Shown: positions 449-63,343, numbered from the stretch's first letter. The stretch: DNA of 64,000 nt from a virus (IMGVR_UViG_3300034071_000338:148-64147), one strand, 5' to 3'. Program-made: numbers and translations. The notes: a model not told the origin generated them from the sequence alone.

Positions 449-464
449 GTGTCTTCAAAGACAC
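449..464. repeat. 16-bp palindrome copy 1 (GTGTCTTCAAAGACAC)
   Basis: Exact match to the dispersed motif; lies between the putative promoter and the ATG at 488. Confidence 0.95.
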
Positions 465-487
465 TGCCCACAAATCAAATCAAGTCT

Positions 488-1606
488 ATGTGTGTAATTA
501 TTATCAAGCAGAAGGGCAAGAAAGTCCCTCAGGAGGTTGCAAAGACCTCCGCAAGAATCAATCCTCACGGGTTGGGTGTAGTGTGGTTGGATACGTTCGA
601 GGTAACGTATCACAAATCAGCAGAGTACAAGGTACTCGATACGGCAAGACCATTCATTGCTCACTTTAGATATGCGACCATTGGTGCTGTCAACAAAGAG
701 AACACGCATCCATTCAGATGTGGTAGCAACAAGAACGAGTGGTTGATGATGAACGGGACGATAAGAGAGTTGGGCAACCACAAGAAGAGTGACTCAAAAG
801 TATTGGCCGAGAACTTGGGTGAGATACCACGCCATCAGTGGAAGAAAGAGTTGGAGCGTTACGAGTGTAGGTTCGTGTCAGTTAACACGCATAGCAGAAC
901 GTATCAGATGTACAACAAAGAGTTGTGGGTTCAGAGAGATGGGGTTTGGTACAGCAAGGACAACGTCCTTGAGGATAACCTGATAGCGGTGTATGGTACG
1001 TTGAAGAAGGGGTATAGTAACTACAACCATTACTTGACGAGTTCAAAGTATGTGGGTAAGGGTAAGACCAAAGACAAGTATCCCTTGGTAGTTAGTGGAC
1101 TACCTTATTTGATTGAGGAGCGTGGACAAGGGTTCAATGTGGAGGTGGATGTGTTCAAGGTGAGTGCGTCAGTACTTGCTAACTTGGATAGGTTGGAGGG
1201 TCACCCGACTTGGTATAGACGTAAGCAGATTGACATTCAGATGAAAGGCAAGGTGCTTAAGTGTTGGGTTTATTTCAACCTGAGAGAGAGGGCGAATGGT
1301 CAGACATTGCATAGTACGTACACGCAAGTACCGAGCAGACTTAAGTGGTACGAGGAGGAGGACGAGAAGGAGAGTGCAAAGGAGGTAAGTATCTTTAGTC
1401 AGATGGGTTACGAGGAGCCGAAGAGTGCGAGGCTGATAGATATTTTAGAGGACGAGTGTGACGATTGCGAGTTCGACATAACAAATGAGAAGCCCGTATG
1501 TGTGAATTGCTTTCACGATTTGGAGCACGATATGTTTGCGAACTACCATTGTAGCAGTTGCGATGAGTGGTTCACCGAGTCTGATGTGATTATGTTCAGG
1601 AACTAA
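488..1606 (+). CDS. Class II (Ntn) glutamine amidotransferase fused to gamma-glutamylcyclotransferase (AIG2-like) and a C-terminal Zn ribbon
   Basis: Start moved to ATG 488 gives Met-Cys (Ntn nucleophile); HFRYAT.G and NTHPF motifs; GGCT motifs AVYGTLKKG and LDRLEGHP.WY.R; CxxC...CxxC at the C-terminus. Confidence 0.85.
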   Translation: MCVIIIKQKGKKVPQEVAKTSARINPHGLGVVWLDTFEVTYHKSAEYKVLDTARPFIAHFRYATIGAVNKENTHPFRCGSNKNEWLMMNGTIRELGNHKKSDSKVLAENLGEIPRHQWKKELERYECRFVSVNTHSRTYQMYNKELWVQRDGVWYSKDNVLEDNLIAVYGTLKKGYSNYNHYLTSSKYVGKGKTKDKYPLVVSGLPYLIEERGQGFNVEVDVFKVSASVLANLDRLEGHPTWYRRKQIDIQMKGKVLKCWVYFNLRERANGQTLHSTYTQVPSRLKWYEEEDEKESAKEVSIFSQMGYEEPKSARLIDILEDECDDCEFDITNEKPVCVNCFHDLEHDMFANYHCSSCDEWFTESDVIMFRN

Positions 1607-1620
1607 CCTGACTCAGGGTG

Positions 1621-1636
1621 GTGTCTTCAAAGACAC
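1621..1636. repeat. 16-bp palindrome copy 2, inside the extended hairpin 1615-1642
   Basis: AGGGTG-GTGTCTTCAAAGACAC-TACCCT, directly 5' of hammerhead 1. Confidence 0.95.
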
Positions 1637-1641
1637 TACCC

Positions 1642-1692
1642 TCCGTAGTAGAGTGAGTACTCTACCTGATGAGCTCAAAAGAGCGAAACGGA
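1642..1692 (+). ncRNA. Type III hammerhead ribozyme 1, predicted cleavage after GUA at 1647
   Basis: UCCG-UA, stem I GUAGAG/CUCUAC, core CUGAUGA, stem II GCUC-AAAA-GAGC, GAAA, CGGA closing stem III. Confidence 0.93.
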
Positions 1693-1744
1693 AACACGTG
1701 CACTTGTGCACGTGTCCCCTCAGTAACCGATAAATATAATCAAG

Positions 1745-2071
1745 ATGAAACCTGAATTAAAATTTGACCACGATGCAATCACAGTAGTTGATGCGTTGGG
1801 TATGAAAGAAACGGCAGAACAAATGTCTGACAAAATCACCGAGGTGGTGAAGGGTTGGATGTTAGATGACAACGAGGGGAAGCAAAGTAAGTTAGCTGAA
1901 GCTATTCACAAGAACTTATACTATGAAGTAATATTGTTCTTGGCTACAAAAGAAGTTAATCGAACATTAAAAGAAACCTTATCAGAAACAGATGCGTTAA
2001 GGGATTTGGTTAAAGCAATGGATGAGTTGGTTGAAAGAATAGAAGTTGAAAAGAAAGCAAAACTTAATTAA
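1745..2071 (+). CDS. Hypothetical early protein
   Basis: 108-aa ORF preceded by AATCAAG like neighbouring genes. Confidence 0.7.
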   Translation: MKPELKFDHDAITVVDALGMKETAEQMSDKITEVVKGWMLDDNEGKQSKLAEAIHKNLYYEVILFLATKEVNRTLKETLSETDALRDLVKAMDELVERIEVEKKAKLN

Positions 2072-2344
2072 ATTTATAAAAAAATTATATGACAAAGATT
2101 CTATTTGGTGAGTTGCTATTCGTATTATTTTATACGGTGACATTTATATGTTGGGTATTCATTTTTGCCTATGGCATTATCAGATTGAATGAAAAGAAAA
2201 ACAAGAAGCTATGAATAAATCATATCAAATCGTTCTCGGGGTTGTGCATTTTTGTTGGCAAGGCTTATGGTTCTTTTTAATATCAGTCCCATTGGCTATC
2301 ACAATTTATATTTTTTTACAATCAATAATCTTAATCAAATCAGT

Positions 2345-2659
2345 ATGTCAAAAAATTATTACCAAATGAGCGAAAGTGCGTCAGCACAAATTGAGATTGA
2401 CTACCTTAGAAGTGAGGTAGCAAAGTTAAAGGAGCAATTAAAAGATGATAAGGTGGCAAGAGAGTTGCTCAGGAAGAAAGGGTTCTTTGTCGACAATCTT
2501 TGGAGCGTTGACGATGTTACGTCTAATTATATTTGCTCACAGGAACAGGCGCACAGGGTGCTTGAGTTGGCGTTAAAGAACGAGGCTACTATGGAGCAAG
2601 TATGGTGGGCAATTGACGATGCGGCTGAATTATTAGAAATCAAATCAAATCAAAACTAA
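2345..2659 (+). CDS. Hypothetical early protein
   Basis: ORF track 2252..2659; ATG 2345 after AATCAAATCAGT is the more likely start. Confidence 0.7.
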   Translation: MSKNYYQMSESASAQIEIDYLRSEVAKLKEQLKDDKVARELLRKKGFFVDNLWSVDDVTSNYICSQEQAHRVLELALKNEATMEQVWWAIDDAAELLEIKSNQN

Positions 2660-2660
2660 T

Positions 2661-2882
2661 ATGGAAAATGTAATCAATGCTACGCCAAAGGCTACGTTCT
2701 ACCTGAACGAATTGGCATCGGAACTAACGGCACTTATCATCGACAAGAAGTATGAGAATACGGGAGTCGTAACAATGAGAGCAAAGAATAACATTATGAC
2801 TTATGTTGGACATATTCAATACGAGTATGACACAATCTATGATGAGGTATTTGAATATTTAACACGCAATCAAATCAAATAA
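2661..2882 (+). CDS. Hypothetical early protein
   Basis: Tightly coupled ORF in the + strand operon. Confidence 0.65.
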   Translation: MENVINATPKATFYLNELASELTALIIDKKYENTGVVTMRAKNNIMTYVGHIQYEYDTIYDEVFEYLTRNQIK

Positions 2883-2883
2883 T

Positions 2884-3279
2884 ATGGAAATCAAAATCAT
2901 TCAAGGAGTAAAGCGAGAAGTCTTAGAAGATGTTTTCGTAACGGCAATTGAAGGTGGTAGTAACTATTGGTACTTTCTAAGCGACCACGCCATTGGCAAA
3001 ATCAGAAGAGCAGTACCTAAAGAGGAAGACCCGTACTTGAGTACGGCAATACTCAAAGCAATCTTAGACCACGATGTTAAGGTTGAGATAAACGATGCGG
3101 ATGATGAGGATGAAGTAATTGGAGTTATTACACGTGGCACTATGCAGTCACGTTTGCAGTTGCTTGCTGAGAGCGAACTTAAATGGGCATTAGATGCGCA
3201 TATCAAAGAGCAAGGTGACGCTGACTCTGCAGATATAGTATTCCAATACATAACAATGGGGGAGGTAATTTATGGATAA
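2884..3279 (+). CDS. Hypothetical phage protein (TAIEGGSNYW motif)
   Basis: Coupled ORF; EGG..YW and C-terminal GEVIYG motifs resemble phage early proteins. Confidence 0.7.
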   Translation: MEIKIIQGVKREVLEDVFVTAIEGGSNYWYFLSDHAIGKIRRAVPKEEDPYLSTAILKAILDHDVKVEINDADDEDEVIGVITRGTMQSRLQLLAESELKWALDAHIKEQGDADSADIVFQYITMGEVIYG

Positions 3280-3469
3280 GCAAGAAACATTAATAGACAG
3301 ACTGAGGATGTTGCAAGAGCAAGCGTCCTCACTTATTCAGGAGTTGGAAGCCAATCCTAACTTTCCTGATGGGCATATCATTACAAAAGAGTCTTGGGAC
3401 AACGCAGACAAAATCATCCACGATGGGTTTGTCTATGTGAAGTACACTGACCTATTGTTTTATAAATAA
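3272..3469 (+). CDS. Hypothetical protein
   Basis: Overlaps the previous stop codon; 65 aa. Confidence 0.6.
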   Translation: MDKQETLIDRLRMLQEQASSLIQELEANPNFPDGHIITKESWDNADKIIHDGFVYVKYTDLLFYK

Positions 3470-3476
3470 ATTGTAC

Positions 3477-3484
3477 TATATTTG
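3477..3484 (+). promoter_or_regulatory. Putative Bacteroidota -7 promoter element
   Basis: TATATTTG, intergenic, upstream of 3539. Confidence 0.45.
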
Positions 3485-3538
3485 TACAAGAATTAATCAA
3501 ATTAACGGGAGCCTTGTGCTCCCATAAAATCTAATCAA

Positions 3539-3784
3539 ATGGAAAAGAAATTAAAAGGGTTGGAAGAATTTTGTGATAGAGGAAGGTTCACAAGCAGAGA
3601 AGCGTATCTTGATAAGAATCCTGATGCAGTCCTCCACAATCAATGCACGGACGTTGTTCAGTACGTTGATGGACATATCATTCAGGTATTGCAGTCAGGT
3701 TTATTTATGGTAGACGAGCAGTTCAGTAGCCGTTCGCTTGATGAGGCGGAGGTGTATTTATACAGAAAAAATATTAGCAAATAA
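3539..3784 (+). CDS. Hypothetical protein
   Basis: 81-aa ORF after AATCTAATCAA. Confidence 0.65.
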   Translation: MEKKLKGLEEFCDRGRFTSREAYLDKNPDAVLHNQCTDVVQYVDGHIIQVLQSGLFMVDEQFSSRSLDEAEVYLYRKNISK

Positions 3785-3809
3785 TTGAACTATGTATGAA
3801 CATATTCAC

Positions 3810-3817
3810 TATATTTG
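3810..3817 (+). promoter_or_regulatory. Putative Bacteroidota -7 promoter element
   Basis: TATATTTG 20 nt upstream of ATG 3838. Confidence 0.6.
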
Positions 3818-3837
3818 TTCTCAAATTAAATTAAGTT

Positions 3838-4140
3838 ATGAAGCACGATGTATTCAATCAATATGTAGAAAGGGTTGCCGACCTATTTGGTGTGGCAAAG
3901 GAAGATATATTCTCTAAGTCAAAGAAGAGAGAGTATGTAGATGCAAGGCACTTGGTTTACTATCTATGTGCTAAGAGACCAATGCAGATAACGTACATTC
4001 AAAAGTATATGAATGATGCGGGGTATAAAATCAAGCACTCCTCTATCATCCACGGCATCAGCTCAGTTGAGCAGAAGATAGCAGAAGACAAGGACTATGT
4101 GTCTATTGTCAAGGATGTAGAGAGAGCAGTTTTCATTTAG
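3838..4140 (+). CDS. DnaA C-terminal (domain IV)-like helix-turn-helix protein
   Basis: I.SKSKKREYVDARHLVYYL...HSSIIHG matches the DnaA domain IV pattern (R...V..R.IAMYL...DHSTVIH). Confidence 0.75.
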   Translation: MKHDVFNQYVERVADLFGVAKEDIFSKSKKREYVDARHLVYYLCAKRPMQITYIQKYMNDAGYKIKHSSIIHGISSVEQKIAEDKDYVSIVKDVERAVFI

Positions 4141-4171
4141 TGTAATCAATCAATAATCAAATCAAATCAAA

Positions 4172-4816
4172 ATGGAAAAGAACAAATCAGTCTTTGAAAG
4201 ACTATCGTCTATCAACGTCAATGAGCACGTTGAGAAGAAAAGCAATCTAACTTATTTATCTTGGGCTTGGGCTTGGACGGCTACAAAAACAGAATGCCCT
4301 GATGCCACTTATAAAATCGGACAGACCGAGTATGACGAGGCGCTTGGGTTTATGTGTCATACGTCAGTTACAATCGAAGACGAGACGCTTGAGATGTGGT
4401 TGCCGGTAATGGATGGTGCGAATAAGTCAATGAAGAAGACGGCTTATAGTTATAGCTCACGCTATGGCGACAAGACAGTCGAGGCAGCTACAACTTTCGA
4501 CATTAACAAAACTATTATGCGTTGCTTAGTTAAGAACTTAGCGATGTTTGGGTTAGGGATTTATATCTATGCCGGTGAGGATTTACCTGAGGGAGACTCT
4601 GCGTCTACAAAGGTTGAGGCTCCTAAGAAGACAGCTCCGGCAGTAAGCGATGGCTTGGTCGACTTAAAGAAAGGTACTGACAATTGGGATGCGGTTGTGA
4701 AATACGTAACCACTAACAAAGCATTAGGTATCGAGAAGATTGGTGCTCAGTTGGTACGTAAGTACAAAGTTAGTCCGGCATTGAAAAAAGAAATCGCTAA
4801 CCTTATAAACGCATAA
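4172..4816 (+). CDS. Single-strand annealing protein, Sak3/DUF1071-like
   Basis: INVNEHVEKK..LTYLSWAWAW, MWLPVMD and INKTIMRCLVK..AMFGLGIYIYAGED motifs. Confidence 0.8.
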   Translation: MEKNKSVFERLSSINVNEHVEKKSNLTYLSWAWAWTATKTECPDATYKIGQTEYDEALGFMCHTSVTIEDETLEMWLPVMDGANKSMKKTAYSYSSRYGDKTVEAATTFDINKTIMRCLVKNLAMFGLGIYIYAGEDLPEGDSASTKVEAPKKTAPAVSDGLVDLKKGTDNWDAVVKYVTTNKALGIEKIGAQLVRKYKVSPALKKEIANLINA

Positions 4817-4818
4817 TA

Positions 4819-5559
4819 ATGGCAGACATAGATGTTATATCAGTACTACGTGATGACAACGAGTACTACAATGGTATTGGCAAACAATACCTATCTAATT
4901 CAGACATAGGCATATTGCTTAACAATCCTCAAGACTTCGGTAAGACACGTGAAGATAACAAAGCGTTTATGGATGGCAGATACTTTCACCAATTAATATT
5001 GGAGCCTGAGAAGGCGAAGGCTATGCCATTTGTAGATGTTAGCACACGTACTACCAAAGAGTACAAAGCATTCTGCGAAGAGAATAACTTACCTTTTTGT
5101 ATGTTGAAGAAGGAGCAAGACGAGATTCAAAACCTTGTGAACATTATCAACGGGAACATTGCGTTCTATGATGAGATTTACAAGGCCGGTAATCAGTACG
5201 AGACTCCGGCAATTGCTGAGATTCAAGGTATGATGTGGAAAGGAAAGGCTGATATTGTTACTGACAATGCGGTGATTGACCTTAAGACTACAAGTGATAT
5301 TCATAAGTTCAAGTACAGCGCTAAGTCATATAACTATGATAGTCAGTGCTACATTTATCAGGAACTATTTGGCAAGCCATTAGTGTTCTACGTGATTGAT
5401 AAAGGTACCGGAGTTTTAGGTATCTTTAGACCAACGGAGGACTTTGTAAAAGGTGGCGAAGCCAAAGTAGGTAAAGCAATTGAGGTGTATAATAAATACT
5501 TTAGCGCTAAACCAACAGATGATATAGTGAACTATTACATTGACGAGTACTTGTTATAA
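4819..5559 (+). CDS. PD-(D/E)XK exonuclease (RecE/DUF3799-like recombination partner)
   Basis: LSNS, KGKADI, IDLKTT and Y.YDSQ..IY motifs; adjacent to the annealase. Confidence 0.8.
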   Translation: MADIDVISVLRDDNEYYNGIGKQYLSNSDIGILLNNPQDFGKTREDNKAFMDGRYFHQLILEPEKAKAMPFVDVSTRTTKEYKAFCEENNLPFCMLKKEQDEIQNLVNIINGNIAFYDEIYKAGNQYETPAIAEIQGMMWKGKADIVTDNAVIDLKTTSDIHKFKYSAKSYNYDSQCYIYQELFGKPLVFYVIDKGTGVLGIFRPTEDFVKGGEAKVGKAIEVYNKYFSAKPTDDIVNYYIDEYLL

Positions 5560-5581
5560 GATTTGCATTCCCCCAATGCGA

Positions 5582-5597
5582 GTGTCTTCAAAGACAC
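5582..5597. repeat. 16-bp palindrome copy 3
   Basis: GTGTCTTCAAAGACAC, 4 nt upstream of the tRNA-like element. Confidence 0.95.
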
Positions 5598-5601
5598 AGG
5601 C

Positions 5602-5682
5602 AGTCAGGAGTCGTTGCGGTAAACGAAAGCTGAGATTAAAGACCTCAGTCTGCTCTTGTAGGTTCGAGTCCTACCCTGACTA
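5602..5682 (+). tRNA. tRNA-like element or pseudo-tRNA with an atypical anticodon arm
   Basis: 7-bp acceptor stem AGTCAGG/CCTGACT; canonical T arm GTAGG-TTCGAGT-CCTAC; D-like arm TCGTT-GCGGTA-AACGA; CTGAG/CTCAG stem with 9-nt loop ATTAAAGAC; no U8 and no encoded CCA. Confidence 0.6.
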
Positions 5683-5757
5683 CAACTAACTATTAGCTTA
5701 GCCTCAGAGGTTAATGGTTGGTATAAATAGACTGAGGCAACAAATAAATTTAGAACG

Positions 5758-6072
5758 ATGGCAAACGAAGAAAAAATCTTTGCAGACGGATTCTCATTCA
5801 AGAGAAACGAAAAGGCACCTGACTTTGTAGTTGGGAGATTATCAATGAAAGTAGATGAAGCGGTAGCGTTCATCAGACAGCACGAGAAAGGTGGATGGGT
5901 AAACCTAAACATTAAGACTGCACGTAGTGGTAATCATTATGTTGAGTTGGATACCTACGAGCCGACTGCTCAGAGTGGTATGAAACCACAATCAGAGACA
6001 GTTGCTACTCCGAAACAAAAAGCACCTCAATCTCAGGTAGCTGATGAAGAAGAAGAGGTACTTCCATTTTAA
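5758..6072 (+). CDS. Probable single-stranded DNA-binding protein
   Basis: Small beta-rich protein with acidic tail ending EEEEVLPF, within the recombination/replication cluster. Confidence 0.6.
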   Translation: MANEEKIFADGFSFKRNEKAPDFVVGRLSMKVDEAVAFIRQHEKGGWVNLNIKTARSGNHYVELDTYEPTAQSGMKPQSETVATPKQKAPQSQVADEEEEVLPF

Positions 6073-6100
6073 AATTGACACCAATTTAGAAACAAGAATT

Positions 6101-6127
6101 GGGGGAGTGAAAACTTCCCCTTTTTTT
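6101..6127 (+). terminator. Intrinsic terminator
   Basis: GGGGAGT-GAAA-ACTTCCCC hairpin followed by T7. Confidence 0.75.
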
Positions 6128-6140
6128 ACCTCTAATGCGT

Positions 6141-6297
6141 GACGAAAATGTCGATGTGTTTTCCCTATATTCTCTATATGTGTTTTTCTATTCTTCTTAT
6201 TTTTTTAAATTATATTCTGAATAAAAAATTGACATAATCGACATTAATACTAATAATCAAATAGTTAGATACTTAAAACCGACATAAAACCGACATA
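6141..6297. repeat. Iteron-like array A (candidate replication origin)
   Basis: Inverted ATGTCG, pyrimidine/AT-rich tract, then TTGACAT-AATCGACAT and AAAACCGACAT x2, immediately before the primase gene. Confidence 0.6.
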
Positions 6298-6299
6298 CA

Positions 6300-8723
6300 A
6301 TGGTACATAATGTGACGATATTCCAAAATATTAGAGATACTGACACGCCATTCTTCCGAGATGTACACGTTATACTCGAGAGAATTAAAGACGGAGCCGG
6401 TGCTACTAAGGATTTGGTTAAGAAGATACGCTTAGAGAAGCGTAAACCTGAGAGGCAAGAACTAAAGAAGCAATTGCCGGCAATATGTTTCAGTGGTACA
6501 TTCAACAAGAGGACAGACGCATCATTGATTGAGCATTCAGGATTGATATGTTTGGACTTCGATGGATATACAAAGCAGAAAGAGTTATTGCAAGACAAAG
6601 AGAATTTATCAAAGAATAAGTATGTGTTCTCTGTATTCATTTCCCCTTCGGGTAATGGGCTGAAAGTTTTGGTGAAGATTCCGGCAGATGCAGAGAACCA
6701 TACAATGTACTTTAATTCATTAGAAAAGTACTTTAATTCGGCTTACTTCGACAAGACGAGCAAGAACCTCAGTAGAGTTTGTTACGAGTCCTATGACCCT
6801 CTAATTGCGATTAATGAGAATAGTAGTATTTGGGATGTGATTGAGGAACCTGAGTACACTGAGGTAAGCAAGACAAGAGACAAGGCAACGATACCAATTA
6901 CGGATGAGAATAAAATTGTGGAGATACTTGTAAAGTGGTGGGAGAAAAAATATCCTATGCACGAGGGACAGCGTAATCAGAATGCGTATGTGCTTGCGAT
7001 GGCGTTCAATGACTTTGGTATTAACAAGAGCCTTGCATCGTATGTACTTAATCAGTTTGCGTCAGAAGACTTTACGCTTAGGGAGATTGGGACGACCATC
7101 GACTCTGCGTATAGGCACACTGCGAACTTCGGTACCAAGTACTACGAAGATGAAGAGCGCATCAATACCATTAAAGCAAAGCTGAGACGTGGTGTATCAA
7201 AAAAAGAGATTCGCATCCAACTGCAGGACTCCAATTTGGACAGCGATACTATCGAGTCTGTACTAAATAAGGTTGAGGAAGAGAATGCGATGCAGACATT
7301 TTGGGACAGGAACGACAGGGGAGTCATCAAGGTTGTGCACGTACAGTTCAAACAGTTCTTGGAAGATAATGGATTCTATAAGTACTGCCCTGAGGGTGGT
7401 AAGAATTATATATTCGTAAAGGTTACCAATAACTTGATTGACCATACGAGTGAGAAAGAGATTAAGGACTTCGTGCTTACGCACTTGTTGGAGTTAGATG
7501 ATATTGGTGTGTACAATTACTTCGCTGACAATACGAGATTCTTCAAAGAAGAGTTCTTGTCATTGCTATCAACGATTGAGATTTACTTCATTGCTGATAA
7601 CAAAGATTCATCGTACTTGTACTATAAGAATTGTGCGATTAAGATTAGCAAAGAAGGTGTGACAACGCTTGACTACTTGGACTTGGGAGGGTACGTGTGG
7701 AAAGACCACGTGATAGATAGGAACTTCAACCTATGTAGTGTGACTGAAAGATGTGACTTCAAAAAGTTTGTGAGCAATATCAATGGCGGTGACCCAAGCA
7801 GAGTTAAAGCAATGGAGAGCACGATTGGATTCTTGCTACACGGATATAAGAACCTATCATTTTGTCCGGCTGTTATTCTAAATGATGAGGTGATTAGTGA
7901 TAACCCTGAGGGTGGAACCGGTAAGGGTCTACTGATGAGTGCGCTAAGTAAGATGAAGAAATTGGTTGTGATTGATGGCAAGTCATTTGCTTTCGAGCGT
8001 AGCTTCGCTTATCAGTTGGTGTCAGCAGATACGCAGATACTATGCTTCGATGATGTGAGAAAGCATTTTGACTTCGAGCGTTTGTTTTCAGTAGTTACTG
8101 AGGGTCTAACGCTTGAGAAGAAAAACAAGGACGCCATCAAGATACCATTCAGTAGGTCTCCTAAGATTGCCATCACAACGAACTATGCAATTAAGGGTGC
8201 CGGTAATTCATTTGCGAGAAGAAAGTGGGAGTTGGAACTTCATCAGTACTACAATAAGGAGTACACTCCGCTTGATGAGTTTGGTAAGTTGATGTTTGGC
8301 GATTGGAATGACGATGATTGGTGTGAGTTTGACAACTATATGATTGGTTGTTTAACGAACTATTTAAAGACGGGACTTGTGAAGAGCAAGTTTGTGAACC
8401 TTAAGATTCGTCAGTTGTCAGCAGAGACTTGCCACGAATTTATTGAGTGGTGTGGTCTTGTAGATACGCATCATAACAGAGAGGTAATGTTGCAACCGGA
8501 TGTTAGGCTTTATAAGAACGAGTTGTATGCTAACTTTGTAGATGAGTATCCTGACTACGGGCCTCGAGGTAGAATGAGTATAAGCAGAACCAAGTTCTAC
8601 AAATGGCTTATTGCTTATGGTATTTATAAGGAAGGAGTAATGCCACAGGAGGATAGAGACCAACAAGGTAGATGGATAATCATTAAAAGTAAACCTGAGG
8701 GACTTGAAGAAGCACCTTTTTAA
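6300..8723 (+). CDS. Primase-helicase (BT4734/VirE-N-like primase domain plus P-loop helicase)
   Basis: KKQLPAICFSG.F, HSGLICLDFD and FISPSGNGLK primase motifs; Walker A GGTGKG; Walker B LCFDD. Confidence 0.85.
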   Translation: MVHNVTIFQNIRDTDTPFFRDVHVILERIKDGAGATKDLVKKIRLEKRKPERQELKKQLPAICFSGTFNKRTDASLIEHSGLICLDFDGYTKQKELLQDKENLSKNKYVFSVFISPSGNGLKVLVKIPADAENHTMYFNSLEKYFNSAYFDKTSKNLSRVCYESYDPLIAINENSSIWDVIEEPEYTEVSKTRDKATIPITDENKIVEILVKWWEKKYPMHEGQRNQNAYVLAMAFNDFGINKSLASYVLNQFASEDFTLREIGTTIDSAYRHTANFGTKYYEDEERINTIKAKLRRGVSKKEIRIQLQDSNLDSDTIESVLNKVEEENAMQTFWDRNDRGVIKVVHVQFKQFLEDNGFYKYCPEGGKNYIFVKVTNNLIDHTSEKEIKDFVLTHLLELDDIGVYNYFADNTRFFKEEFLSLLSTIEIYFIADNKDSSYLYYKNCAIKISKEGVTTLDYLDLGGYVWKDHVIDRNFNLCSVTERCDFKKFVSNINGGDPSRVKAMESTIGFLLHGYKNLSFCPAVILNDEVISDNPEGGTGKGLLMSALSKMKKLVVIDGKSFAFERSFAYQLVSADTQILCFDDVRKHFDFERLFSVVTEGLTLEKKNKDAIKIPFSRSPKIAITTNYAIKGAGNSFARRKWELELHQYYNKEYTPLDEFGKLMFGDWNDDDWCEFDNYMIGCLTNYLKTGLVKSKFVNLKIRQLSAETCHEFIEWCGLVDTHHNREVMLQPDVRLYKNELYANFVDEYPDYGPRGRMSISRTKFYKWLIAYGIYKEGVMPQEDRDQQGRWIIIKSKPEGLEEAPF

Positions 8724-8733
8724 AATATAAATT

Positions 8734-8991
8734 ATGAAAACAGCAATGCAAGAATTTGAAATATTATTTTATAAGAAAGCACAACCAACCATTAATACGA
8801 ATAGTTGGGTAGTACATAAAGACGAGTTTGAAAAATTAATCTTAGCTGCCAAAGAAAAAGAAAAAGAGCAGATAATTACCGCTTTTGAAGTTGGATATAA
8901 ATCTTGCGATTTAGATGAAACGTTTGAAATTAATAGGAAATTAGCAAGTGGAGAACTGCACTATAACAAAACCTATAACCAAAACAAATAA
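8734..8991 (+). CDS. Hypothetical protein (KE.EKEQII.A motif)
   Basis: ORF in operon; MKTA and EKEQII motifs. Confidence 0.7.
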   Translation: MKTAMQEFEILFYKKAQPTINTNSWVVHKDEFEKLILAAKEKEKEQIITAFEVGYKSCDLDETFEINRKLASGELHYNKTYNQNK

Positions 8992-8994
8992 CCT

Positions 8995-11404: not shown

Positions 11405-11420
11405 ATACTAATTTTGTAAT

Positions 11421-12392: not shown

Positions 12393-12395
12393 TAG

Positions 12396-13033: not shown

Positions 13034-13050
13034 AATTATATAAAAAACTT

Positions 13051-56722: not shown

Positions 56723-57184
56723 ATGAAATCACACCCAACTGACTATCTAAAATTTTGGAGGGTCATCAGGTATTATGTTAAGTCAAAGCATAAATTAAGC
56801 CAAGCCGACCTCGACATCCTACTGTTCTTATACTCAGAAAGTTACTTTGGGCAAGAGAAGTTTGATGAGTTTGCCGAACTCGTTAGTTGGGACAAGCAGA
56901 GGTTTAATAAATTACTTAAACAAGGATGGATTGAGCGTTTTAGAATGAGGGCAAGAAACAGGGCACTATACCAACTCAGTGATAAGTGCAAACGCCTTAT
57001 TGTTGATATCTATAGAAAACTAAACGGGGAAGAAATCCCCGTTAGTAATTCGTATAACTCAATGTTTTTAAAGAATGTGTCCTATAACGACAAGGTCTAT
57101 CGCAATATGATTCTTGAAATGAATGCATACAACAAAGCCAACAAGTATAGGTCACCAAAAGGTGAGAACAAAGAAGACGATTAA
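56723..57184 (+). CDS. Winged-helix (MarR-like) DNA-binding protein
   Basis: LSQADLDILLFL...F.KLLKQGWI...LYQLS.K; the only + strand gene inside the late region. Confidence 0.6.
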   Translation: MKSHPTDYLKFWRVIRYYVKSKHKLSQADLDILLFLYSESYFGQEKFDEFAELVSWDKQRFNKLLKQGWIERFRMRARNRALYQLSDKCKRLIVDIYRKLNGEEIPVSNSYNSMFLKNVSYNDKVYRNMILEMNAYNKANKYRSPKGENKEDD

Positions 57185-57438
57185 AGCACCACCACCACGT
57201 CACGCTCTGAGATGATAGTATATTGCAAATCATCTATCAGCATCGTGAAGCTATGCGCCTTGTCATAGTATAACTCATCACCTTCGTCAATGACACTTAC
57301 GTCAGTGCCGGGAGCTACCACCGATGCACGCTTATATCTAAGCTGATTGGTATCCTCCCCTGACAATATCAATCCCGACTCAGTGGTCACTGTCTCTTGT
57401 ATGTCTTTTACAACAATGTATTTTCCAATTGGTTTCAT
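57181..57438 (-). CDS. groES: Co-chaperonin GroES
   Basis: MKPIGKYIVVK, TESGLIL, VVAPG and I.EGD motifs; likely start ATG 57438. Confidence 0.85.
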   Translation of the reverse strand: MKPIGKYIVVKDIQETVTTESGLILSGEDTNQLRYKRASVVAPGTDVSVIDEGDELYYDKAHSFTMLIDDLQYTIISERDVVVVL

Positions 57439-57448
57439 TTGATTTGAT

Positions 57449-57709
57449 TTAAGTATATGTAATTTCAGGATGCTCCCACTTTTCTTTACCACATAAAATA
57501 CATTTAGTCTTGGCTGTTGGATTTGGTTTATTAGATGAAAATGAATGAGTTGAATAAGTAGTACCTGAACTAAATGTTAATGAAGTTCCTGTAGTTGTTA
57601 CTCCTTGACTATTTTGTGGACAATGACTACACATACTTGTTGTTGGAGAATAGACTCTTTTACATTTGGGACATTCCCATCCCTGTGGAATAAAGGTTGT
57701 TTGTACCAT
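57449..57709 (-). CDS. Zn-ribbon protein between groEL and groES
   Basis: GWECPKCKRVYSP....C..C; likely start ATG 57709. Confidence 0.65.
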   Translation of the reverse strand: MVQTTFIPQGWECPKCKRVYSPTTSMCSHCPQNSQGVTTTGTSLTFSSGTTYSTHSFSSNKPNPTAKTKCILCGKEKWEHPEITYT

Positions 57710-57713
57710 AATT

Positions 57714-59330
57714 TTATTGTTGTTGCTCGTATGTACGAGCCATTGTGATAATTGCATTAGTACTTAGGATGGTGACAGCTACGCTGACAGCATTTTGAAG
57801 TGCACTACGTGTAACTTTCAACGGGTCAATAACACCCATCTCAATCAAGTCACCCATCTGACCGGTCTTAAGGTTGTACCCGTGACCAACAGGAGTGCTA
57901 TCCTTGTACACATCGCTTGGTTTTAAACCTGCATTAGCAAGTATTTGTTGAAATGGAGCCATAAGTGCGTTGCGAACAATGTTAACTGCTGCCATATACT
58001 CAACATTACCAACAATATCACCCATATCAGCACACTCATCAAGTAATGCTTTGCCGGCACCCGGTAAAATTCCTTCCTCAAGAGCAGACCTTACTGCACA
58101 CACAGCGTCATCAACCCTGTCATACAACTCTTTTTGCTCCAAGTCAGTTTGACCACCCACAAAAATAACACCTATGCCACCCGTAAGTGATGCAATACGC
58201 TCCAATAAAAAGTCTTTGTCACCTTTCTTAGTCGCTTCTTTATGCGCATCCCATAACTGCTTAACTCTTTCCTCAACCAATGTCAGGTCAGCCTTAGCCT
58301 CACTACGAATAATAATGGTTTTGTCTTTGCTCACTATCACCTTAGCAGCGTGACCCAAATCAGCATAGTTGATATGGCTGATATCGTCACCCGTCTTTTC
58401 ACTAAAGTATGTCGCTCCTACGCTAATGGCAATGTCTTGCATCAACTCGTGTTGCTTGTATCCAAAGTTAGGAGGAGGAACTGCAACTACTTTTAAGTTA
58501 CCCTTAACTGAGTTCGCTGCAAGCGTGTTTACCACGTTTGTATTACACGGAGAGATAATCAATAACTTCTTGCCTTCAGTAATAATTGGCTTCAACACAT
58601 TCTCAATCTGTAAGATATTTGCTATCTCCATATCAGCTACCAAAACCATCACGTCCTCAAACACACACTCGTCTTTCTTTTGGTCATTGATAAACATCGG
58701 GCTTAAATACCCTCTGTCAAATTTCAAACCCTTAGTTGTCTCAGCATATGTCTCTGCCGTTTGGCTTCTTTCCACTGTGACAATACCCGTCTTACCTACG
58801 TCCTTATAAACTTCTGATATGATTCGTCCAATCTCTCTGTCATTGTTTGCACTAATAGCTGCCACATCTAATAGCATACTACTGCTGACCTTCTTAGCCT
58901 TACGCTTTAACTTGTCCACCACCTTGCTTGTTATGTCCACCATATGTCTCAGTACCTCTGTTCTGTTCATATCATCTTTGATATGCTCAAGACCACCAAG
59001 TACTAATCCCTCTGTCAATACAATAGCTGTGGTCGTACCATCACCTGCTGAAGTAGCTGTCTTGTCTGCTGCCTCCTTCATCATCTTAACTGCCAAGTTC
59101 TCACTCGGGTCAATCAAGTCAATTGACTTAGCAACTGTGACACCATCCTTAGTAACTGTAATGCCGTGTGTGTGATGCGGACTTTCAATAAGCACAGTGT
59201 TACCACTTGGTCCGAGTGTTGACTTAACAGCCTTGGACATCTTGACAACGCCACTGATAAGTTTCTTTCTTCCGTCCGAACCGAACTGCAAATCCTTGGG
59301 TGAGTACCCAATACCTGATGTTTCTACCAT
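57714..59330 (-). CDS. groEL: Chaperonin GroEL
   Basis: TLGP.G, VTKDGVTVA, AGDGTTTA, DAVCAVRSALEEGI.PG.G and GVIDP.KV motifs. Confidence 0.95.
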   Translation of the reverse strand: MVETSGIGYSPKDLQFGSDGRKKLISGVVKMSKAVKSTLGPSGNTVLIESPHHTHGITVTKDGVTVAKSIDLIDPSENLAVKMMKEAADKTATSAGDGTTTAIVLTEGLVLGGLEHIKDDMNRTEVLRHMVDITSKVVDKLKRKAKKVSSSMLLDVAAISANNDREIGRIISEVYKDVGKTGIVTVERSQTAETYAETTKGLKFDRGYLSPMFINDQKKDECVFEDVMVLVADMEIANILQIENVLKPIITEGKKLLIISPCNTNVVNTLAANSVKGNLKVVAVPPPNFGYKQHELMQDIAISVGATYFSEKTGDDISHINYADLGHAAKVIVSKDKTIIIRSEAKADLTLVEERVKQLWDAHKEATKKGDKDFLLERIASLTGGIGVIFVGGQTDLEQKELYDRVDDAVCAVRSALEEGILPGAGKALLDECADMGDIVGNVEYMAAVNIVRNALMAPFQQILANAGLKPSDVYKDSTPVGHGYNLKTGQMGDLIEMGVIDPLKVTRSALQNAVSVAVTILSTNAIITMARTYEQQQ

Positions 59331-59456: not shown

Positions 59457-59774
59457 AATGTCGAAAAATTGCATAGTAATGTCGATTTATGACGATTAAA
59501 TGTCGGATATTAAAAAGTCGACATTGGCTGTAATGCAATGTAGTAAAGGATTTCACTATGCTTTGGCATAGCAAATGTCTAAAATGCAGAAAAACTTTCC
59601 CTACTTCTTCTATATATATTCCCTCCTTTTATTATTTTTTTCCCATATTATTTTCTCTTAAAAATCGACATTTTCGACATTAAAGAAATAAAGTATTAAT
59701 AATCAATAAGTTATAAAAATAAAATCGACATAAAATCGACATAAAAACAGGACGAAAATGTCAATATTGACATT
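59457..59774. repeat. Iteron-like array B (candidate replication origin)
   Basis: Several ATGTCG copies, a pyrimidine/AT-rich tract, then AATCGACAT-TTTCGACAT and AAAATCGACAT x2; same layout as 6141-6297. Confidence 0.65.
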
Positions 59775-59895: not shown

Positions 59896-60153
59896 CTAAT
59901 CCATTTCCGGTCCTTCCATCATCTCAGTCTTAATGTTACCTAAGTAAACAGCCTCAGCCATCATCTGAACTTTCTCTGCTTTCTTAACTACCTTCTTTAA
60001 ATCAGCAGCTTGACGAATGCCGGTTATACCATCAGGACGATTGTTAATTAACATACCGTCACTAACATTCAAACCAAAGCCTGCACCCTTCTGTTGGTAG
60101 ATGCTGTTTGATAAGTCTGCCTTGTAAACAGAATTTCCAAATTTTAATTTCAT
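59896..60153 (-). CDS. Hypothetical protein
   Basis: 85-aa ORF with a downstream hairpin near 59845-59866. Confidence 0.6.
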   Translation of the reverse strand: MKLKFGNSVYKADLSNSIYQQKGAGFGLNVSDGMLINNRPDGITGIRQAADLKKVVKKAEKVQMMAEAVYLGNIKTEMMEGPEMD

Positions 60154-60455
60154 AATAATTGTTTTTGAAGTGTGAAATATTTCAAGGTAAAGATAAGATT
60201 TTTTTTAGATGGTATTAGTGTTTGGGCTATAGGGGGTTTTTGGCGATAGGACCCCCCAACGGAAATGACTTTTTTTTGACGGGTACGGGTACACGTTTTA
60301 AACTTTCCTTGCTAATTTTTTAGCTTTTTGGTAGCGCCATCGATGGAAACGAGCGCCTTGTTGCGCTCCGCTCCGCTCCCGTCCTCCGTATTGCGTCCAA
60401 CGAAGCGCCTGAGACTCACGTATTCGCTCCGCTCCCGTCCTTTGCTCCGTACTTT

Positions 60456-60471
60456 GTGTCTTTGAAGACAC
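60456..60471. repeat. 16-bp palindrome copy 9
   Basis: GTGTCTTTGAAGACAC in the divergent intergenic region. Confidence 0.95.
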
Positions 60472-60615
60472 TAAACGAGAGAGAAAGAGACAAGAGAGAG
60501 GCTTTTAGACCTCTCCCGTACATTGCAAGTACAAACTTTGTACAATATCAGGCAACCTCAAGCGCCTTATTGTATTGAGTTTCCATATATCAGATAAAAA
60601 AAAGATTAAAAAAAT

Positions 60616-60645
60616 TTTGTAGTATTCAGAATTGAACTATATTTG
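60616..60645 (+). promoter_or_regulatory. Early promoter, Bacteroidota sigma-A consensus
   Basis: TTTG (60616-60619), 18-nt spacer, TATATTTG (60638-60645); upstream of ATG 60685. Confidence 0.7.
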
Positions 60646-60684
60646 AGAAACAATTGAACAATTAATAATCAAAATTTAAACACT

Positions 60685-61320
60685 ATGAGTCAATTACTAA
60701 GCATCGAAAGTAGTTTCTTGAACTTGCCAATAGTCAAGCAGAGCTTGAACTTGCAAGAAATCAGGAGCGTTCAACGAACTATCGTAAACGCAAAGAAGAA
60801 AAAGTTCGAACAAACTTTGGCCTTGAGTAAGTTAGTTACTAAGGCGGTTGAGTGGTTTCAGTCAGAAGAGGGTCAACGAGTATGCACCGAAGAGGGTATC
60901 AGTTGGACGAATGAGGAAATTGGTCAGAAAGTTTTCGGATGGCAAAAATCATTTTTCTACAAGGTAGTCAAGGCGGGTAAGTTAGACGAGGCCGTTGTTG
61001 ACACGTTCAAGGCTAAGTGTGACGAGGCCGAGACACGTGGTGAAGACCCGAACCGCTCACTTGAGGGCTTACTGAAATTCGCTAAGCAAGTGGAAACGGG
61101 CACAAGTGAAAGTGGACAAGGTGAAGGCGGAGAGGGTGAGAGTGAGGCGCAAGTTGAGACACGTGTTGAAACCATACTCACGTTCACGTACAAAAGTGAG
61201 GGAGGCAATGTTTCAGTGCGTATCGATGCCGAGGGTAACGTGAAAACCACTAACAGCGCCGAGCAAATTCGTGAGGCTATTGCGGTATTACAATTTTCAA
61301 TCCAAAATCAAAATCAATAA
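60685..61320 (+). CDS. Hypothetical early protein
   Basis: 211 aa, first gene of the + strand block; possible HTH-like segment. Confidence 0.75.
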   Translation: MSQLLSIESSFLNLPIVKQSLNLQEIRSVQRTIVNAKKKKFEQTLALSKLVTKAVEWFQSEEGQRVCTEEGISWTNEEIGQKVFGWQKSFFYKVVKAGKLDEAVVDTFKAKCDEAETRGEDPNRSLEGLLKFAKQVETGTSESGQGEGGEGESEAQVETRVETILTFTYKSEGGNVSVRIDAEGNVKTTNSAEQIREAIAVLQFSIQNQNQ

Positions 61321-61322
61321 TT

Positions 61323-62192
61323 ATGAACGGAGTAATTTACCAAACAACGGGTCAACGTGAGCGTGGTCAAGTTCAACATTACCATCGTAAGCCGAGCCCA
61401 CTATTTTTGAACAAGACTAAGCACGTTGTTGACGTTGCGGGTCTTAAGAAAGCCGACCAACGTACGGCTATCAAGTTCGAGGGTCAAGACATTGAGGCTA
61501 AGTTCACCATCGGTTTCGAGGTTGAAAAAAATCAACTTCACCGAGGTGCGGTGCGTGAGTATGAATTGTTTTGTGGTTTCGAGCGTGATGGGTCTTGCGG
61601 TTACGAGGCCGTTACCCACGTGCTCCCTTTATTGCCATCGGGTGGGTGGCGCACTAAGGTTTACGATATGATGCACAAGGCCGAAAAAATTATCGATGAT
61701 AGATACAGCCCGAGCGATAGACGTTGCGGAGGCCATATCACGATAGCGGTTGACGGCTTGAGCGGTGACCAACTTCGTGAGGCGGTGCGTAAAAATTGCG
61801 GTATCATTTACGCCTTATTCAAGAAGCGCCTTACGAACAACTATTGCAGTTACAATAATCGTATGCAATCTTACAACGAGTGTACTAATTGGCATAGCAA
61901 GTACCAATTGGCGCTCGTTAAGGGTGGTTGCCTTGAGTTTAGGGTGCCAAGCCGTTTCGAGTCAGTAAAGCAAATGATGAGACGCTATGAGTTGTTTTAC
62001 GAGGTAGTTAACGCCTCCGTATCAGGCACAAGCCACGAGGCGCTCCTTAAGAAGCTAAAGCCCGTTATCGTGTCAATGTACAACGGGGATACAGCCAAGG
62101 CTGACGAGGTGCTAAGACTCGCTAAGTTATTCAGGACGTACATTCTGAAAGGTGAGGTGCATCAGGACATTCTACCTTACTTGTCAAGGTAG
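61323..62192 (+). CDS. Amidoligase (COOH-NH2 ligase, glutamine synthetase/GCS2-like fold)
   Basis: TIGFEVE, DGS..YEAVT, CGGHITI and LEFR motifs. Confidence 0.8.
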   Translation: MNGVIYQTTGQRERGQVQHYHRKPSPLFLNKTKHVVDVAGLKKADQRTAIKFEGQDIEAKFTIGFEVEKNQLHRGAVREYELFCGFERDGSCGYEAVTHVLPLLPSGGWRTKVYDMMHKAEKIIDDRYSPSDRRCGGHITIAVDGLSGDQLREAVRKNCGIIYALFKKRLTNNYCSYNNRMQSYNECTNWHSKYQLALVKGGCLEFRVPSRFESVKQMMRRYELFYEVVNASVSGTSHEALLKKLKPVIVSMYNGDTAKADEVLRLAKLFRTYILKGEVHQDILPYLSR

Positions 62193-62203
62193 CAACAACG
62201 GGA

Positions 62204-62219
62204 GTGTCTTCAAAGACAC
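62204..62219. repeat. 16-bp palindrome copy 10, inside hairpin 62200-62223
   Basis: GGGA-GTGTCTTCAAAGACAC-TCCC, abutting hammerhead 2. Confidence 0.95.
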
Positions 62220-62223
62220 TCCC

Positions 62224-62274
62224 TCCGTAGCGGAGTGAGTGCTCCGCCTGACGAGGCCTAAAGGCCGAAACGGA
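62224..62274 (+). ncRNA. Type III hammerhead ribozyme 2, predicted cleavage after GUA at 62229
   Basis: UCCG-UA, stem I GCGGAG/CUCCGC, core CUGACGA, stem II GGCC-UAAA-GGCC, GAAA, CGGA. Confidence 0.93.
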
Positions 62275-62320
62275 ATTTTAAAACCGAAGGTTTAAAACCC
62301 CTTCAAAAATCAAAATCAAA

Positions 62321-62446
62321 ATGGGACAATCAATCACAATCTTAGAATTATTAGCTATCGGCTTAGTGACCATCGTGTTATACGCCTTTGTTAAAACTTT
62401 AATTCAAACGTGGGGACGCAATGCGGACACACATTCAAAAAACTAA
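62321..62446 (+). CDS. Small membrane peptide (not in ORF track)
   Basis: 41 aa with a hydrophobic helix; preceded by AATCAAAATCAAA. Confidence 0.5.
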   Translation: MGQSITILELLAIGLVTIVLYAFVKTLIQTWGRNADTHSKN

Positions 62447-62456
62447 AACCAATCCA

Positions 62457-63026
62457 ATGAGAAAAATCACAAGAGAAATCGTGGACGCCTTTCAAAACAG
62501 CCGTTCACTCACAATCGGCAACAGCCGTACCAATGGCGAGAGCCTATGGCTATTCGACAATAAGATAGCCGAAATCAGGAGGGATGGCTTATGGATATGT
62601 AATGGTGGTTGGAATAGCGCAACCACAAAGGAGAGACTCAATGGCTTATCAGGTGTGCACATTGTACAACGTGGTGGCAATTGGTTCTTAAATTTCAGGC
62701 AATGGGATGGTCGATGGGTTAACGTAGATGCGTGGAATCAGGAAGCAGAATCGGTGCCTGAGGAAATTGTTCAGGAGCCTGAGTTCGATGTTACCAGCGA
62801 ATGGATGGAGCAAGGGTATAGCAGACCCGTTTATTCAATCTACCATACGTTGGTGGAGTCAAACCTTGAGGAGGTGGAGCAGATGCTAAACGGGGAAGGG
62901 ATACCAACCAAAAGGATGGAGTCAGATACTGAGGGTGCGTATCAACCAAACTACTTCATCGTGGTGCGACCTGAGGATGTAGTAAGAGCGAGTTCAATAT
63001 TGTGTACTAATTATTCACTTATATAA
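62457..63026 (+). CDS. Hypothetical early protein (W.S.TTKERLN motif)
   Basis: ORF track 62421; ATG 62457 is the more likely start. Confidence 0.75.
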   Translation: MRKITREIVDAFQNSRSLTIGNSRTNGESLWLFDNKIAEIRRDGLWICNGGWNSATTKERLNGLSGVHIVQRGGNWFLNFRQWDGRWVNVDAWNQEAESVPEEIVQEPEFDVTSEWMEQGYSRPVYSIYHTLVESNLEEVEQMLNGEGIPTKRMESDTEGAYQPNYFIVVRPEDVVRASSILCTNYSLI

Positions 63027-63037
63027 ATCAAATCAAA

Positions 63038-63298
63038 ATGAAATTCGATTATTTCTTAGACCAAAAAGTTACAACGTGGTATAGAACACGTTTTGAAATC
63101 AATGCAAACAATCAGGAGGAGGCTGATGAAAAAGCAAAGGAGTTTATAAGAGTCGGCAATCATTCAGATATTGAGTGGGAACAAGTAGATGGTGTTATTG
63201 ATGTAATGACTCCTGAAATAAATGACAATCAGGCTACGGAAGAGTTGTTTCAAAGTAATGGGGAGGATGAAAAAATTTGGGACAATTTAAATGATTAA
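63038..63298 (+). CDS. Hypothetical acidic early protein
   Basis: I.A...EEA..KA motif; preceded by AATCAAATCAAA. Confidence 0.7.
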   Translation: MKFDYFLDQKVTTWYRTRFEINANNQEEADEKAKEFIRVGNHSDIEWEQVDGVIDVMTPEINDNQATEELFQSNGEDEKIWDNLND

Positions 63299-63327
63299 AA
63301 GTGAGGGTGTACTTCGAGCGTATGCGA

Positions 63328-63343
63328 GTGTCTTCAAAGACAC
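63328..63343. repeat. 16-bp palindrome copy 11
   Basis: GTGTCTTCAAAGACAC, 19 nt upstream of hammerhead 3; an extra right half-site AAGACAC lies at 63356-63362. Confidence 0.95.

Follow-up and report, generated by a model that had tools for sequence, protein, structure and literature searches.

The 64,000-nt window analysed here, bases 148–64147 of the 64,147-bp viral record IMGVR_UViG_3300034071_000338, contains 11 exact copies of a 16-bp palindrome, GTGTCTTYRAAGACAC, where 0 are expected. The record carries direct terminal repeats and is rated 100 % complete; over its full length it holds the same 11 copies as the window. The closest named relative is an uncultured podovirus, MW202828.1, with capsid and portal proteins at 71–75 % identity, followed by the Flavobacterium Elemoviruses at 46 % and the Cellulophaga phi38:1-type podophages at ~34 % (portal). 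Early and middle genes are on the + strand, from 60685 across the record junction to 14683, and structural genes are on the − strand. Start codons have A-rich, AAATCAAATCAA-like leaders upstream and are without Shine-Dalgarno sequences, which we take to fit a Bacteroidota host. A tRNA search of the window found none. The palindrome copies and the features associated with them are as follows.

449–464 (+): palindrome copy, centre CA, intergenic, 23 nt before the GGCT-like gene (ATG at 488); relatives also have a copy here
1616–1641 (+): RNA hairpin, palindrome 1621–1636 lengthened by flank pairs AGGGUG...UACCCU; minimum free energy (MFE) −36.4 kcal/mol, z −5.6
1640–1694 (+): type III hammerhead ribozyme-like element; RF00008 37.2 bits, E 2e-4 (gathering 48.5); covariation in relatives
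5582–5597 (+): palindrome copy, centre CA, intergenic, 22 nt past the stop of a PDDEXK-like gene
11127–11142 (+): palindrome copy in the helicase gene (SVFEDT); sense-strand centre TG in 5/5 genomes compared
20964–20979 (−): palindrome copy in the gene of a 2858-amino-acid (aa) virion protein (VSLKT); one per orthologous gene in 5 genomes, in non-alignable protein context
34922–34955 (−): intrinsic terminator after the capsid gene; hairpin 34928–34955 with palindrome 34934–34949 as its tip, U-run 34922–34927; MFE −21.7, z −6.7
41994–42009 (−): palindrome copy in TerL (CLQRH), towards the N-terminus and shortly before a conserved EQYWER; 5/5 genomes
55544–55559 (−): palindrome copy in the DUF5872 gene (VSSKT); also in the orthologues of relatives G002 and G004
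60456–60471 (no strand assigned): palindrome copy, intergenic between divergent genes, 213 nt ahead of the first early gene
60685–61320 (+): first early gene, 211-aa product, the best candidate for a protein that reads the palindrome; helix-turn-helix (HTH)-like helices at residues 76–84 and 88–98
62200–62223 (+): RNA hairpin, palindrome 62204–62219 lengthened by GGGA...UCCC; MFE −41.4, z −6.0
62222–62276 (+): type III hammerhead ribozyme-like element; RF00008 38.7 bits, E 8e-5
63318–63352 (+): palindrome 63328–63343 in a longer interrupted hairpin, ~19 nt upstream of a ribozyme
63361–63416 (+): type III hammerhead ribozyme-like element; RF00008 41.4 bits, E 1.4e-5

Matches to the GTGTCTTNNAAGACAC pattern start at 449, 1621, 5582, 11127, 20964, 34934, 41994, 55544, 60456, 62204 and 63328; against these 11, none arose in any of 100 shuffles that preserved dinucleotides (mean 0.00, maximum 0). 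When up to two mismatches are permitted the total is still 11 (shuffles mean 0.28) and not one degenerate copy is gained, thus the palindrome is all-or-none. The centre is CA in five copies, TG in four and TA in two; CA and TG are mutual reverse complements, and the word is therefore oriented. Seven of the 11 copies are intergenic and four lie within genes, where they are translated in three frames. The copy at 41994 is truly inside TerL, since conserved protein sequence flanks it on either side and the PHROG match spans residues 31–747 of the open reading frame (ORF) 39969–42218. Six copies occur from 60456 to 5582 across the record junction, with a spacing of 5–14 kb elsewhere. The flanks of the copies are mutually unrelated. 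A first-pass annotation, made from the sequence alone, had reported at least 11 copies, at these starts, a central dinucleotide as the only variable part, four copies in coding sequences read in three frames, and a dense early region with 5–14 kb intervals elsewhere; the exact scan, shuffles and translations bear out each of these points. It had also allowed for a library or assembly artefact. This can be set aside, as the motif recurs in many independent assemblies and a contig from run X1, probably the source sample, spans 60200–64000 with 0 differences. The contigs of runs X2–X4 come from relatives.

A scan of viral contigs found the motif in at least 120 stretches, and among the 170 matches listed 164 have a pyrimidine–purine centre (CA 72, TG 67, TA 17, CG 8). 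Four complete relatives contain 12, 13, 11 and 11 copies and a 41-kb fragment contains 18; a reversed control pattern gave 0. The copies are found at orthologous places although the proteins compared share only 31–84 % identity. They are kept inside the helicase gene and inside the N-terminus of TerL in 5/5 genomes, once in the giant virion protein gene in 5/5, after the capsid gene in 4/5 and in the DUF5872 gene in 3/5. Relatives likewise have a copy in the divergent region that precedes the first early gene, and another 19–23 nt before the GGCT-like gene. The in-gene copy is retained across genomes whose helicase proteins are 58–67 % identical. Conservation at the nucleotide level, as the first-pass annotation had argued, is upheld by these orthologous copies, by the three frames and by the non-homologous protein context.

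The word differs between lineages. Comparison was made over 80 related loci, which are stretches around the GGCT-like gene; genes in relatives are crude ATG-ORF calls, and locus counts are phylogenetically non-independent. The GTGTCTT type, in at least three copies, is present in 56 of the 80 loci. Other lineages carry GTCTCTT, GTCCGTT, ATCCGTT, GTGTACA, GGCTCG, GTGTCCT or mixtures of GTGTCTT and GTGTCCT. Each genome is internally uniform in its word, and between lineages the changes are symmetric. In MW202828.1 the word is GTGTCGTTAACGACAC (GTGTCGT type), which occurs 14 times and is a perfect palindrome in 14/14; all 14 copies fall within an 11.4-kb early region, with zero in late genes. In loci L154–L156 the four inner bases of the word are free, often giving GNRA-type loops (GUGA, GCAA, GUAA). 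Neither words nor ribozymes were found in loci L181, L185 and L187, and the Elemovirus NC_055854.1, with a capsid 46 % identical, has no repeated palindrome. The Elemoviruses, which are without the element, are the nearest isolates, and a cultured relative that has it was not found. A host protein, one of the binders first put forward, is unlikely because related phages differ in their words, and the uniformity of each word within its lineage argues instead for a co-evolving, phage-encoded reader.

The 435 unique sites in relatives comprise 102 that are ribozyme-linked, 104 with an ATG 5–40 nt downstream, 88 in long ORFs and 141 others. At 81 of the 104 ATG-proximal sites the ATG follows at 14–23 nt, forming a peak, and sites of this class are often only −1 to 4 nt past the preceding stop codon. 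In the sense strand, the CA:TG ratio of centres is 75:4 at ribozyme sites and 75:16 at ATG-proximal sites, while sites in ORFs have no orientation bias (CA 35, TG 43). Of the 58 copies in five genomes, 29 fall outside genes as crudely called, where non-coding sequence makes up ~7 %. As a signal the palindrome is conserved and specific to each lineage, and for the most part it marks boundaries between genes.

The copies at 1621, 62204 and 63328 are directly upstream of type III hammerhead ribozymes (RF00008, 37–41 bits, E 1e-5 to 2e-4). Neither these three elements nor the capsid-gene terminator had been part of the first picture of the motif; they came to light in an RF00008 scan and by folding. 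All three align to RF00008 model positions 1–54 with the core (CUGANGA...GAAA) intact, and the cleavage triplets after stem III are GUA, GUA and GUC. Stem III is only 5 bp in the window ribozymes. Detection was by E-value scan, below the Rfam gathering threshold, at which there is no match (37.2, 38.7 and 41.4 bits vs 48.5). By sequence and alignment the three elements are classed as type III hammerheads, with self-cleavage predicted. The same E-value scan found no ribozyme next to the copy at 5582.

A pattern scan of the 80 loci returned 154 hammerhead candidates, all on the early sense strand. In 129 of these a 5+6+5 palindrome lies at most 45 nt upstream, 5′ of stem III, and the ribozymes of variant lineages carry that lineage's own word. 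Among 26 diverse hairpin–ribozyme modules, compensatory changes are present in 6/7 pairs of stem I, 3/4 of stem II and 3/5 of stem III, while 5/8 pairs of the palindrome helix are invariant. Within these modules 97.4 % of cells are paired, compared with 80.6 % in shuffles, and the covariation is 0.536 vs 0.192, a level reached by 0 of 500 shuffles.

At ribozyme sites the flanks of the word pair for a further 4–6 variable positions. Over 107 unique ribozyme-linked sites, flank positions 1–4 pair in 93, 98, 97 and 95 of 107, with G.U in 46, 28, 18 and 13 and A.C in 3, 0, 1 and 1. Because G.U is frequent and A.C nearly absent, the flanks pair in the sense RNA. Predicted folds place a lengthened stem of 10–11 pairs directly against stem III, and in some relatives stem III begins at the first base past the word. 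The copy at 1621 begins 14 nt past the stop of the GGCT-like gene and the copy at 62204 begins 11 nt past the stop of gene 61323–62192; the hairpins of both adjoin a ribozyme. The copy at 34934 forms part of a 12-bp hairpin followed by UUUUUU, 18 nt past the capsid gene stop, which qualifies as an intrinsic terminator. This copy is the tip of that terminator, and the same arrangement follows the capsid gene in G002, G003 and G004.

Two of the three ribozymes have a second hairpin directly 3′, at 1695–1717 and 62277–62300 (+). The one after 1694 is a 10-bp perfect inverted repeat, and the one after 62276 is an AAAACC...GGTTT-type hairpin that is recurrent after ribozymes in relatives.

The palindrome stem stays fixed next to ribozyme stems that covary freely, hence something reads the palindrome sequence; structure by itself does not account for 14 frozen bases, and the stem sequence is under selection too. 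The arms are invariant and the centre variable, with a pyrimidine–purine dinucleotide in 434 of 435 unique sites. One-sided changes at positions 6/11 give C.A in 25 cases and U.G in 24, and as the two are equally common, the half-sites vary independently of pairing. This pattern looks like duplex half-sites, and the copies in genes, found in any frame and either orientation, also favour duplex DNA. If the word is read as DNA, a palindrome implies a dimer, and every transcribed copy is by its palindromic nature also an RNA hairpin. Most likely, the sequence is read as DNA and the resulting hairpin is used in RNA, so that both levels matter. A dimeric binding protein and an RNA hairpin tag, presented as alternatives in the first-pass annotation, both fit these data and could well hold together.

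The interpretation we favour, with a probability of about one half, is that the phage encodes a protein which binds sequence-specifically and has the palindrome as its recognition word. Copies would punctuate the boundaries between cistrons of the early operon and occupy a few conserved positions in middle and late genes, the word serving also as an RNA hairpin. The product of the first early gene would bind duplex DNA as a dimer, with two GTGTCYT half-sites around the central pyrimidine–purine step. Being made first, it would occupy words between early cistrons, upstream of its own gene and at a few middle and late sites, and could act as a global regulator in a stoperator-like manner, blocking or shutting off host RNA polymerase running through the early genes. 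Where a word is unbound, the polymerase would read through, and hairpin and ribozyme would then cut the polycistronic RNA into units. Self-cleavage would leave an upstream mRNA ending in a stable hairpin and a downstream mRNA starting with the ribozyme. The lengthened hairpin, with its 4–6 variable pairs, would abut stem III at three boundaries here and at about a hundred in relatives. The existence, conservation and placement of the word, its lineage variants, the RNA pairing of its flanks, the covariation in the ribozymes and the co-variation with the 60685 protein are observed; binding by a protein, DNA as its target and a transcription block are inferred.

A fuller version of this scheme, which we regard as doubtful when its parts are taken jointly, is that one 16-nt word is read twice: on the duplex an immediate-early HTH protein would halt polymerase at every cistron boundary, and in RNA the hairpin would dock coaxially on a hammerhead ribozyme or top a terminator. 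The transcripts of a lytic phage would then have a programmable punctuation code specific to the lineage, and among freshwater and marine phages of Flavobacteriia that occur together, words and reader would diversify jointly in the way of immunity groups.

The likeliest reader is the product of 60685–61320. Columns of protein alignments were scored as discriminating when at least 85 % of GTGTC-type loci shared a residue and at least 75 % of the 8 variant-type loci had another; the families compared were those with at least five variant-lineage orthologues, families with 0–3 being uninformative. The 60685 protein has 40 conserved columns, and 7 of these change in step with the type of palindrome, against 0–3 % in most other families; the next best families have 1/13, 2/38 and 6/228. 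Counts elsewhere are 0/60 for the winged-helix protein (56723–57184), 0/35 for the DnaA-HTH protein (3838–4140), 1/95 for the 61323 protein, 0/147 for the GGCT-like protein, 1/105 for the PDDEXK nuclease, 0/50 for Sak, 4/513 for the primase, 6/228 for the helicase, 2/298 for GroEL and 0/38 for GroES. Four of the seven switching columns (I72, V83, Q87, K93) are in or beside the HTH-like helices 76–84 and 88–98, which are separated by a 3-residue turn in the AlphaFold model (predicted local distance difference test, pLDDT, 87.9). In L154–L156, where the inner word is relaxed, the 60685 protein has 44–47 % identity while its neighbours have 65–92 %. Its family counts 920 members in the protein collection, with no Pfam domain and no informative name. 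Sequence co-variation and the predicted model together make it the best candidate, as the first-pass annotation had it among others. The winged-helix and DnaA-like proteins, also named there, were rejected, no column of either tracking the palindrome type. The small protein 59896–60153 was likewise discarded, as it is absent from several palindrome-bearing loci.

Several observations weigh against a DNA-binding 60685 protein as the reader. The protein belongs to no Pfam or PHROG family, a PDB fold search gave no match at E ≤ 0.001, a profile search of PDB brought up nothing of significance, and the model's matches in BFVD were just four look-alikes without names; consequently the HTH is assigned only from predicted helices and a pattern in the sequence. 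A homologue 31–33 % identical persists in L185 and L187, yet ~21 kb of these loci contain no repeated palindrome, and some GTGTCTT lineages have K, not Q, at position 87. Co-variation is confounded by relatedness, because the variant loci represent perhaps five independent lineages. Another reader may exist, family-library scans (Pfam and/or PHROGs) having covered 38 of the 77 window ORFs. The bias for CA over TG at boundaries, the G.U pairs and the GNRA-type loops in L154–L156 point to RNA, and under the familiar rules for U-turns and GNRA loops the pyrimidine–purine centre could, we presume, equally be the U-N-R turn of a tetraloop. Additionally, the scheme does not account for the copies in the helicase, TerL and virion protein genes.

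An element that acts solely in RNA would account for part of this. The hairpin would be read in the transcript by a phage RNA-binding protein, either a repressor like RegA of T4, which is a translational repressor of early genes, or an endoribonuclease like Cas6, which is hairpin-specific, and DNA binding would be irrelevant. Flanks that pair with many G.U and almost no A.C, a preference for CA in the sense strand at boundaries (75:4 and 75:16), the tight distance to the ATG (81/104 at 14–23 nt), the GNRA-type loops of L154–L156 and the physical fusion of hairpins to ribozymes are all in keeping with such a mechanism. It is nevertheless unlikely in our estimation, given that the loop varies and the stem is frozen, the reverse of what most hairpin-binding proteins read, and that C.A mismatches are as common as U.G in the sense RNA (25 vs 24). 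Copies within ORFs, in any frame and without orientation bias, would be hard to use as mRNA signals, and the candidate reader looks like an HTH protein.

Genome-organising, partition-like or packaging/injection sites of the parS/matS/KorB type were the analogy preferred in the first-pass annotation. KorB operators of IncP plasmids and the ParB–parS system involve about a dozen identical palindromic sites, some in genes, with one global regulator. The 16-bp palindrome, with 11–13 near-invariant copies per genome and some of them in genes, resembles these, as does the presence of one copy in the 8.6-kb virion protein gene at all times, whatever the local protein sequence. We consider this reading improbable. 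No ParB-like family was seen among the 38 ORFs scanned, and the sites here follow cistron boundaries, with a fixed relation to stop codons, start codons and ribozymes; the confinement of all 14 copies of MW202828.1 to its early region, none being late, weighs further against the analogy, and the link to RNA has no counterpart in the KorB and ParB systems.

Slightly less credible still is a hairpin promoter of the coliphage N4 kind, used by an RNA polymerase that the phage encodes or the virion carries. In its favour, the early region is rich in copies, many start codons have one a short, fixed distance before them, the word in MW202828.1 has an A-rich stretch after it, and the N4 promoters are, in the available part of PMC4496689, small conserved inverted repeats forming hairpins in the early region of a podovirus, read by both structure and sequence. 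The 5′ arm and its upstream extension, however, pair in RNA with G.U, which places the word inside transcripts and not upstream of them; stem III begins at the first base past the word in some relatives, and one copy is the tip of a terminator. As presented in that part of PMC4496689, N4 has three promoters with a 3-nt loop of conserved bases upstream of the transcript, in contrast to the 11–18 copies, variable loop and transcribed word seen here. No RNA polymerase was recognised among the ORFs scanned, and the 2858-aa and 2068-aa proteins gave no such match: the former, considered as a phage RNA polymerase, matched only in a Tas1-like stretch, and the latter has no PDB match, its atlas neighbours being tail-like with scores <0.9. 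Least plausible of all is an arrangement with no trans-acting reader, in which gene conversion or a mobile hairpin module keeps the copies identical and the hairpin is purely an RNA structure; strains do seem to gain and lose early genes as cassettes, and genes for Sak, an annealing protein, and for a PDDEXK nuclease are present in the phage, but the adjacent ribozyme stems have diverged completely while the 16 bases are unchanged, the flanks of copies are unrelated, and orthologous in-gene copies persist across helicase proteins of 58–67 % identity.

Among known systems, a phage-encoded protein reading a repeated word has its nearest likeness in the stoperators of cluster A mycobacteriophages (L5 repressor gp71; TipsytheTRex repressor structure), which in the available part of PMC9283540 are many identical short sites across the phage genome, in short intergenic spaces and at promoters. 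According to the same source, their orientation correlates with transcription, and their reader consists of an N-terminal HTH and a second domain, with lineage-specific specificity (PMC9283540). The many identical sites and their intergenic enrichment (here 7/11) are shared. A stoperator, as described there, is a 13-mer without symmetry to which the immunity repressor of a temperate phage binds as a monomer, whereas the element here is a 16-bp palindrome, no integrase was seen among the ORFs scanned, and the sites double as RNA hairpins fused to ribozymes. A block to elongation would, here, be by analogy with stoperators.

The hairpin–ribozyme modules have other parallels. Early genes of T7 are separated by RNase III processing hairpins, whose sequences differ from one another and which a host enzyme cuts, and the man-made RiboJ insulator couples a hammerhead with a hairpin downstream of the ribozyme. 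Both resemble the present modules, the T7 hairpins as intercistronic RNA structures that punctuate the early transcript and RiboJ in its pairing of hammerhead and hairpin. In phage and prophage transcripts, Perreault et al. (2011) found several hammerheads in the space of a few kb between genes that share a transcription unit, and proposed that they cut long phage RNAs into gene-length mRNAs (PMC3088659, available part). No conserved upstream hairpin is described in that part of the source, whereas here 129 of 154 candidates carry the lineage's palindrome 5′ of stem III. No description of the palindrome element was found in the literature, supplementary files such as Dataset S1 of PMC3088659 being outside the scope of the search.

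If the favoured interpretation is true, a large and abundant group of uncultured Flavobacteriia podophages would have a regulatory grammar readable from sequence, with one word per lineage marking cistron boundaries and ribozymes cutting there. Natural phage hammerheads would gain a defined partner element and a testable role, the modules being natural counterparts of engineered ribozyme insulators. The stoperator idea would extend beyond temperate actinophages to a palindromic, probably dimeric, system of lytic phages. Likewise, matched sets of protein and word variants would become available for studying the evolution of DNA or RNA specificity.

Several further features of the early region were noted. 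A scan of 1–20000 with consensus promoters and terminators gave chance-level hits only. By eye, TTTG, 18 nt and TATATTTG are arranged at 60616–60645 (+), ~40 nt before the first early gene; presumably this resembles the Bacteroidota −33/−7 promoter consensus, and it may be an early promoter. Half (7 of 14) of the ATGTCGA/TCGACAT words of the window, where 4.8 are expected overall, lie within 285 bp of AT-rich intergenic sequence at 59458–59742. This cluster may represent iterons at an origin of replication, or else an operator region, and TCGACACTAAA repeats similar to these words are present in L185 and L187.

Contigs of related strains in other samples skip early genes, from 62430 to 63380, from 63040 to 63294 and from 63419 to 63726, with break points near ribozyme and leader sequences (62430–63726); early genes seem to be exchanged as cassettes. 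The GGCT-like protein (488–1606, +) starts Met-Cys and matches gamma-glutamyl cyclotransferase and amidotransferase PHROGs. The 289-aa protein of 61323–62192 (+) matches no Pfam or PHROG family; by eye, we take it to resemble amidoligases. Together, these two early genes may encode a small set of proteins that modify peptides or metabolites.

Elsewhere in the window, GroEL (538 aa) and GroES-like proteins are phage-encoded at 57181–59330 (−), and likewise in related Elemoviruses. Residues 1103–1301 of the 2858-aa virion protein (19354–19950, −) match Tas1 (PDB 6ox6, E 5.9e-6), a bacterial type VI secretion system toxin that synthesizes (p)ppApp. The match suggests an alarmone-synthetase-like effector domain within a giant, probably ejected, virion protein.

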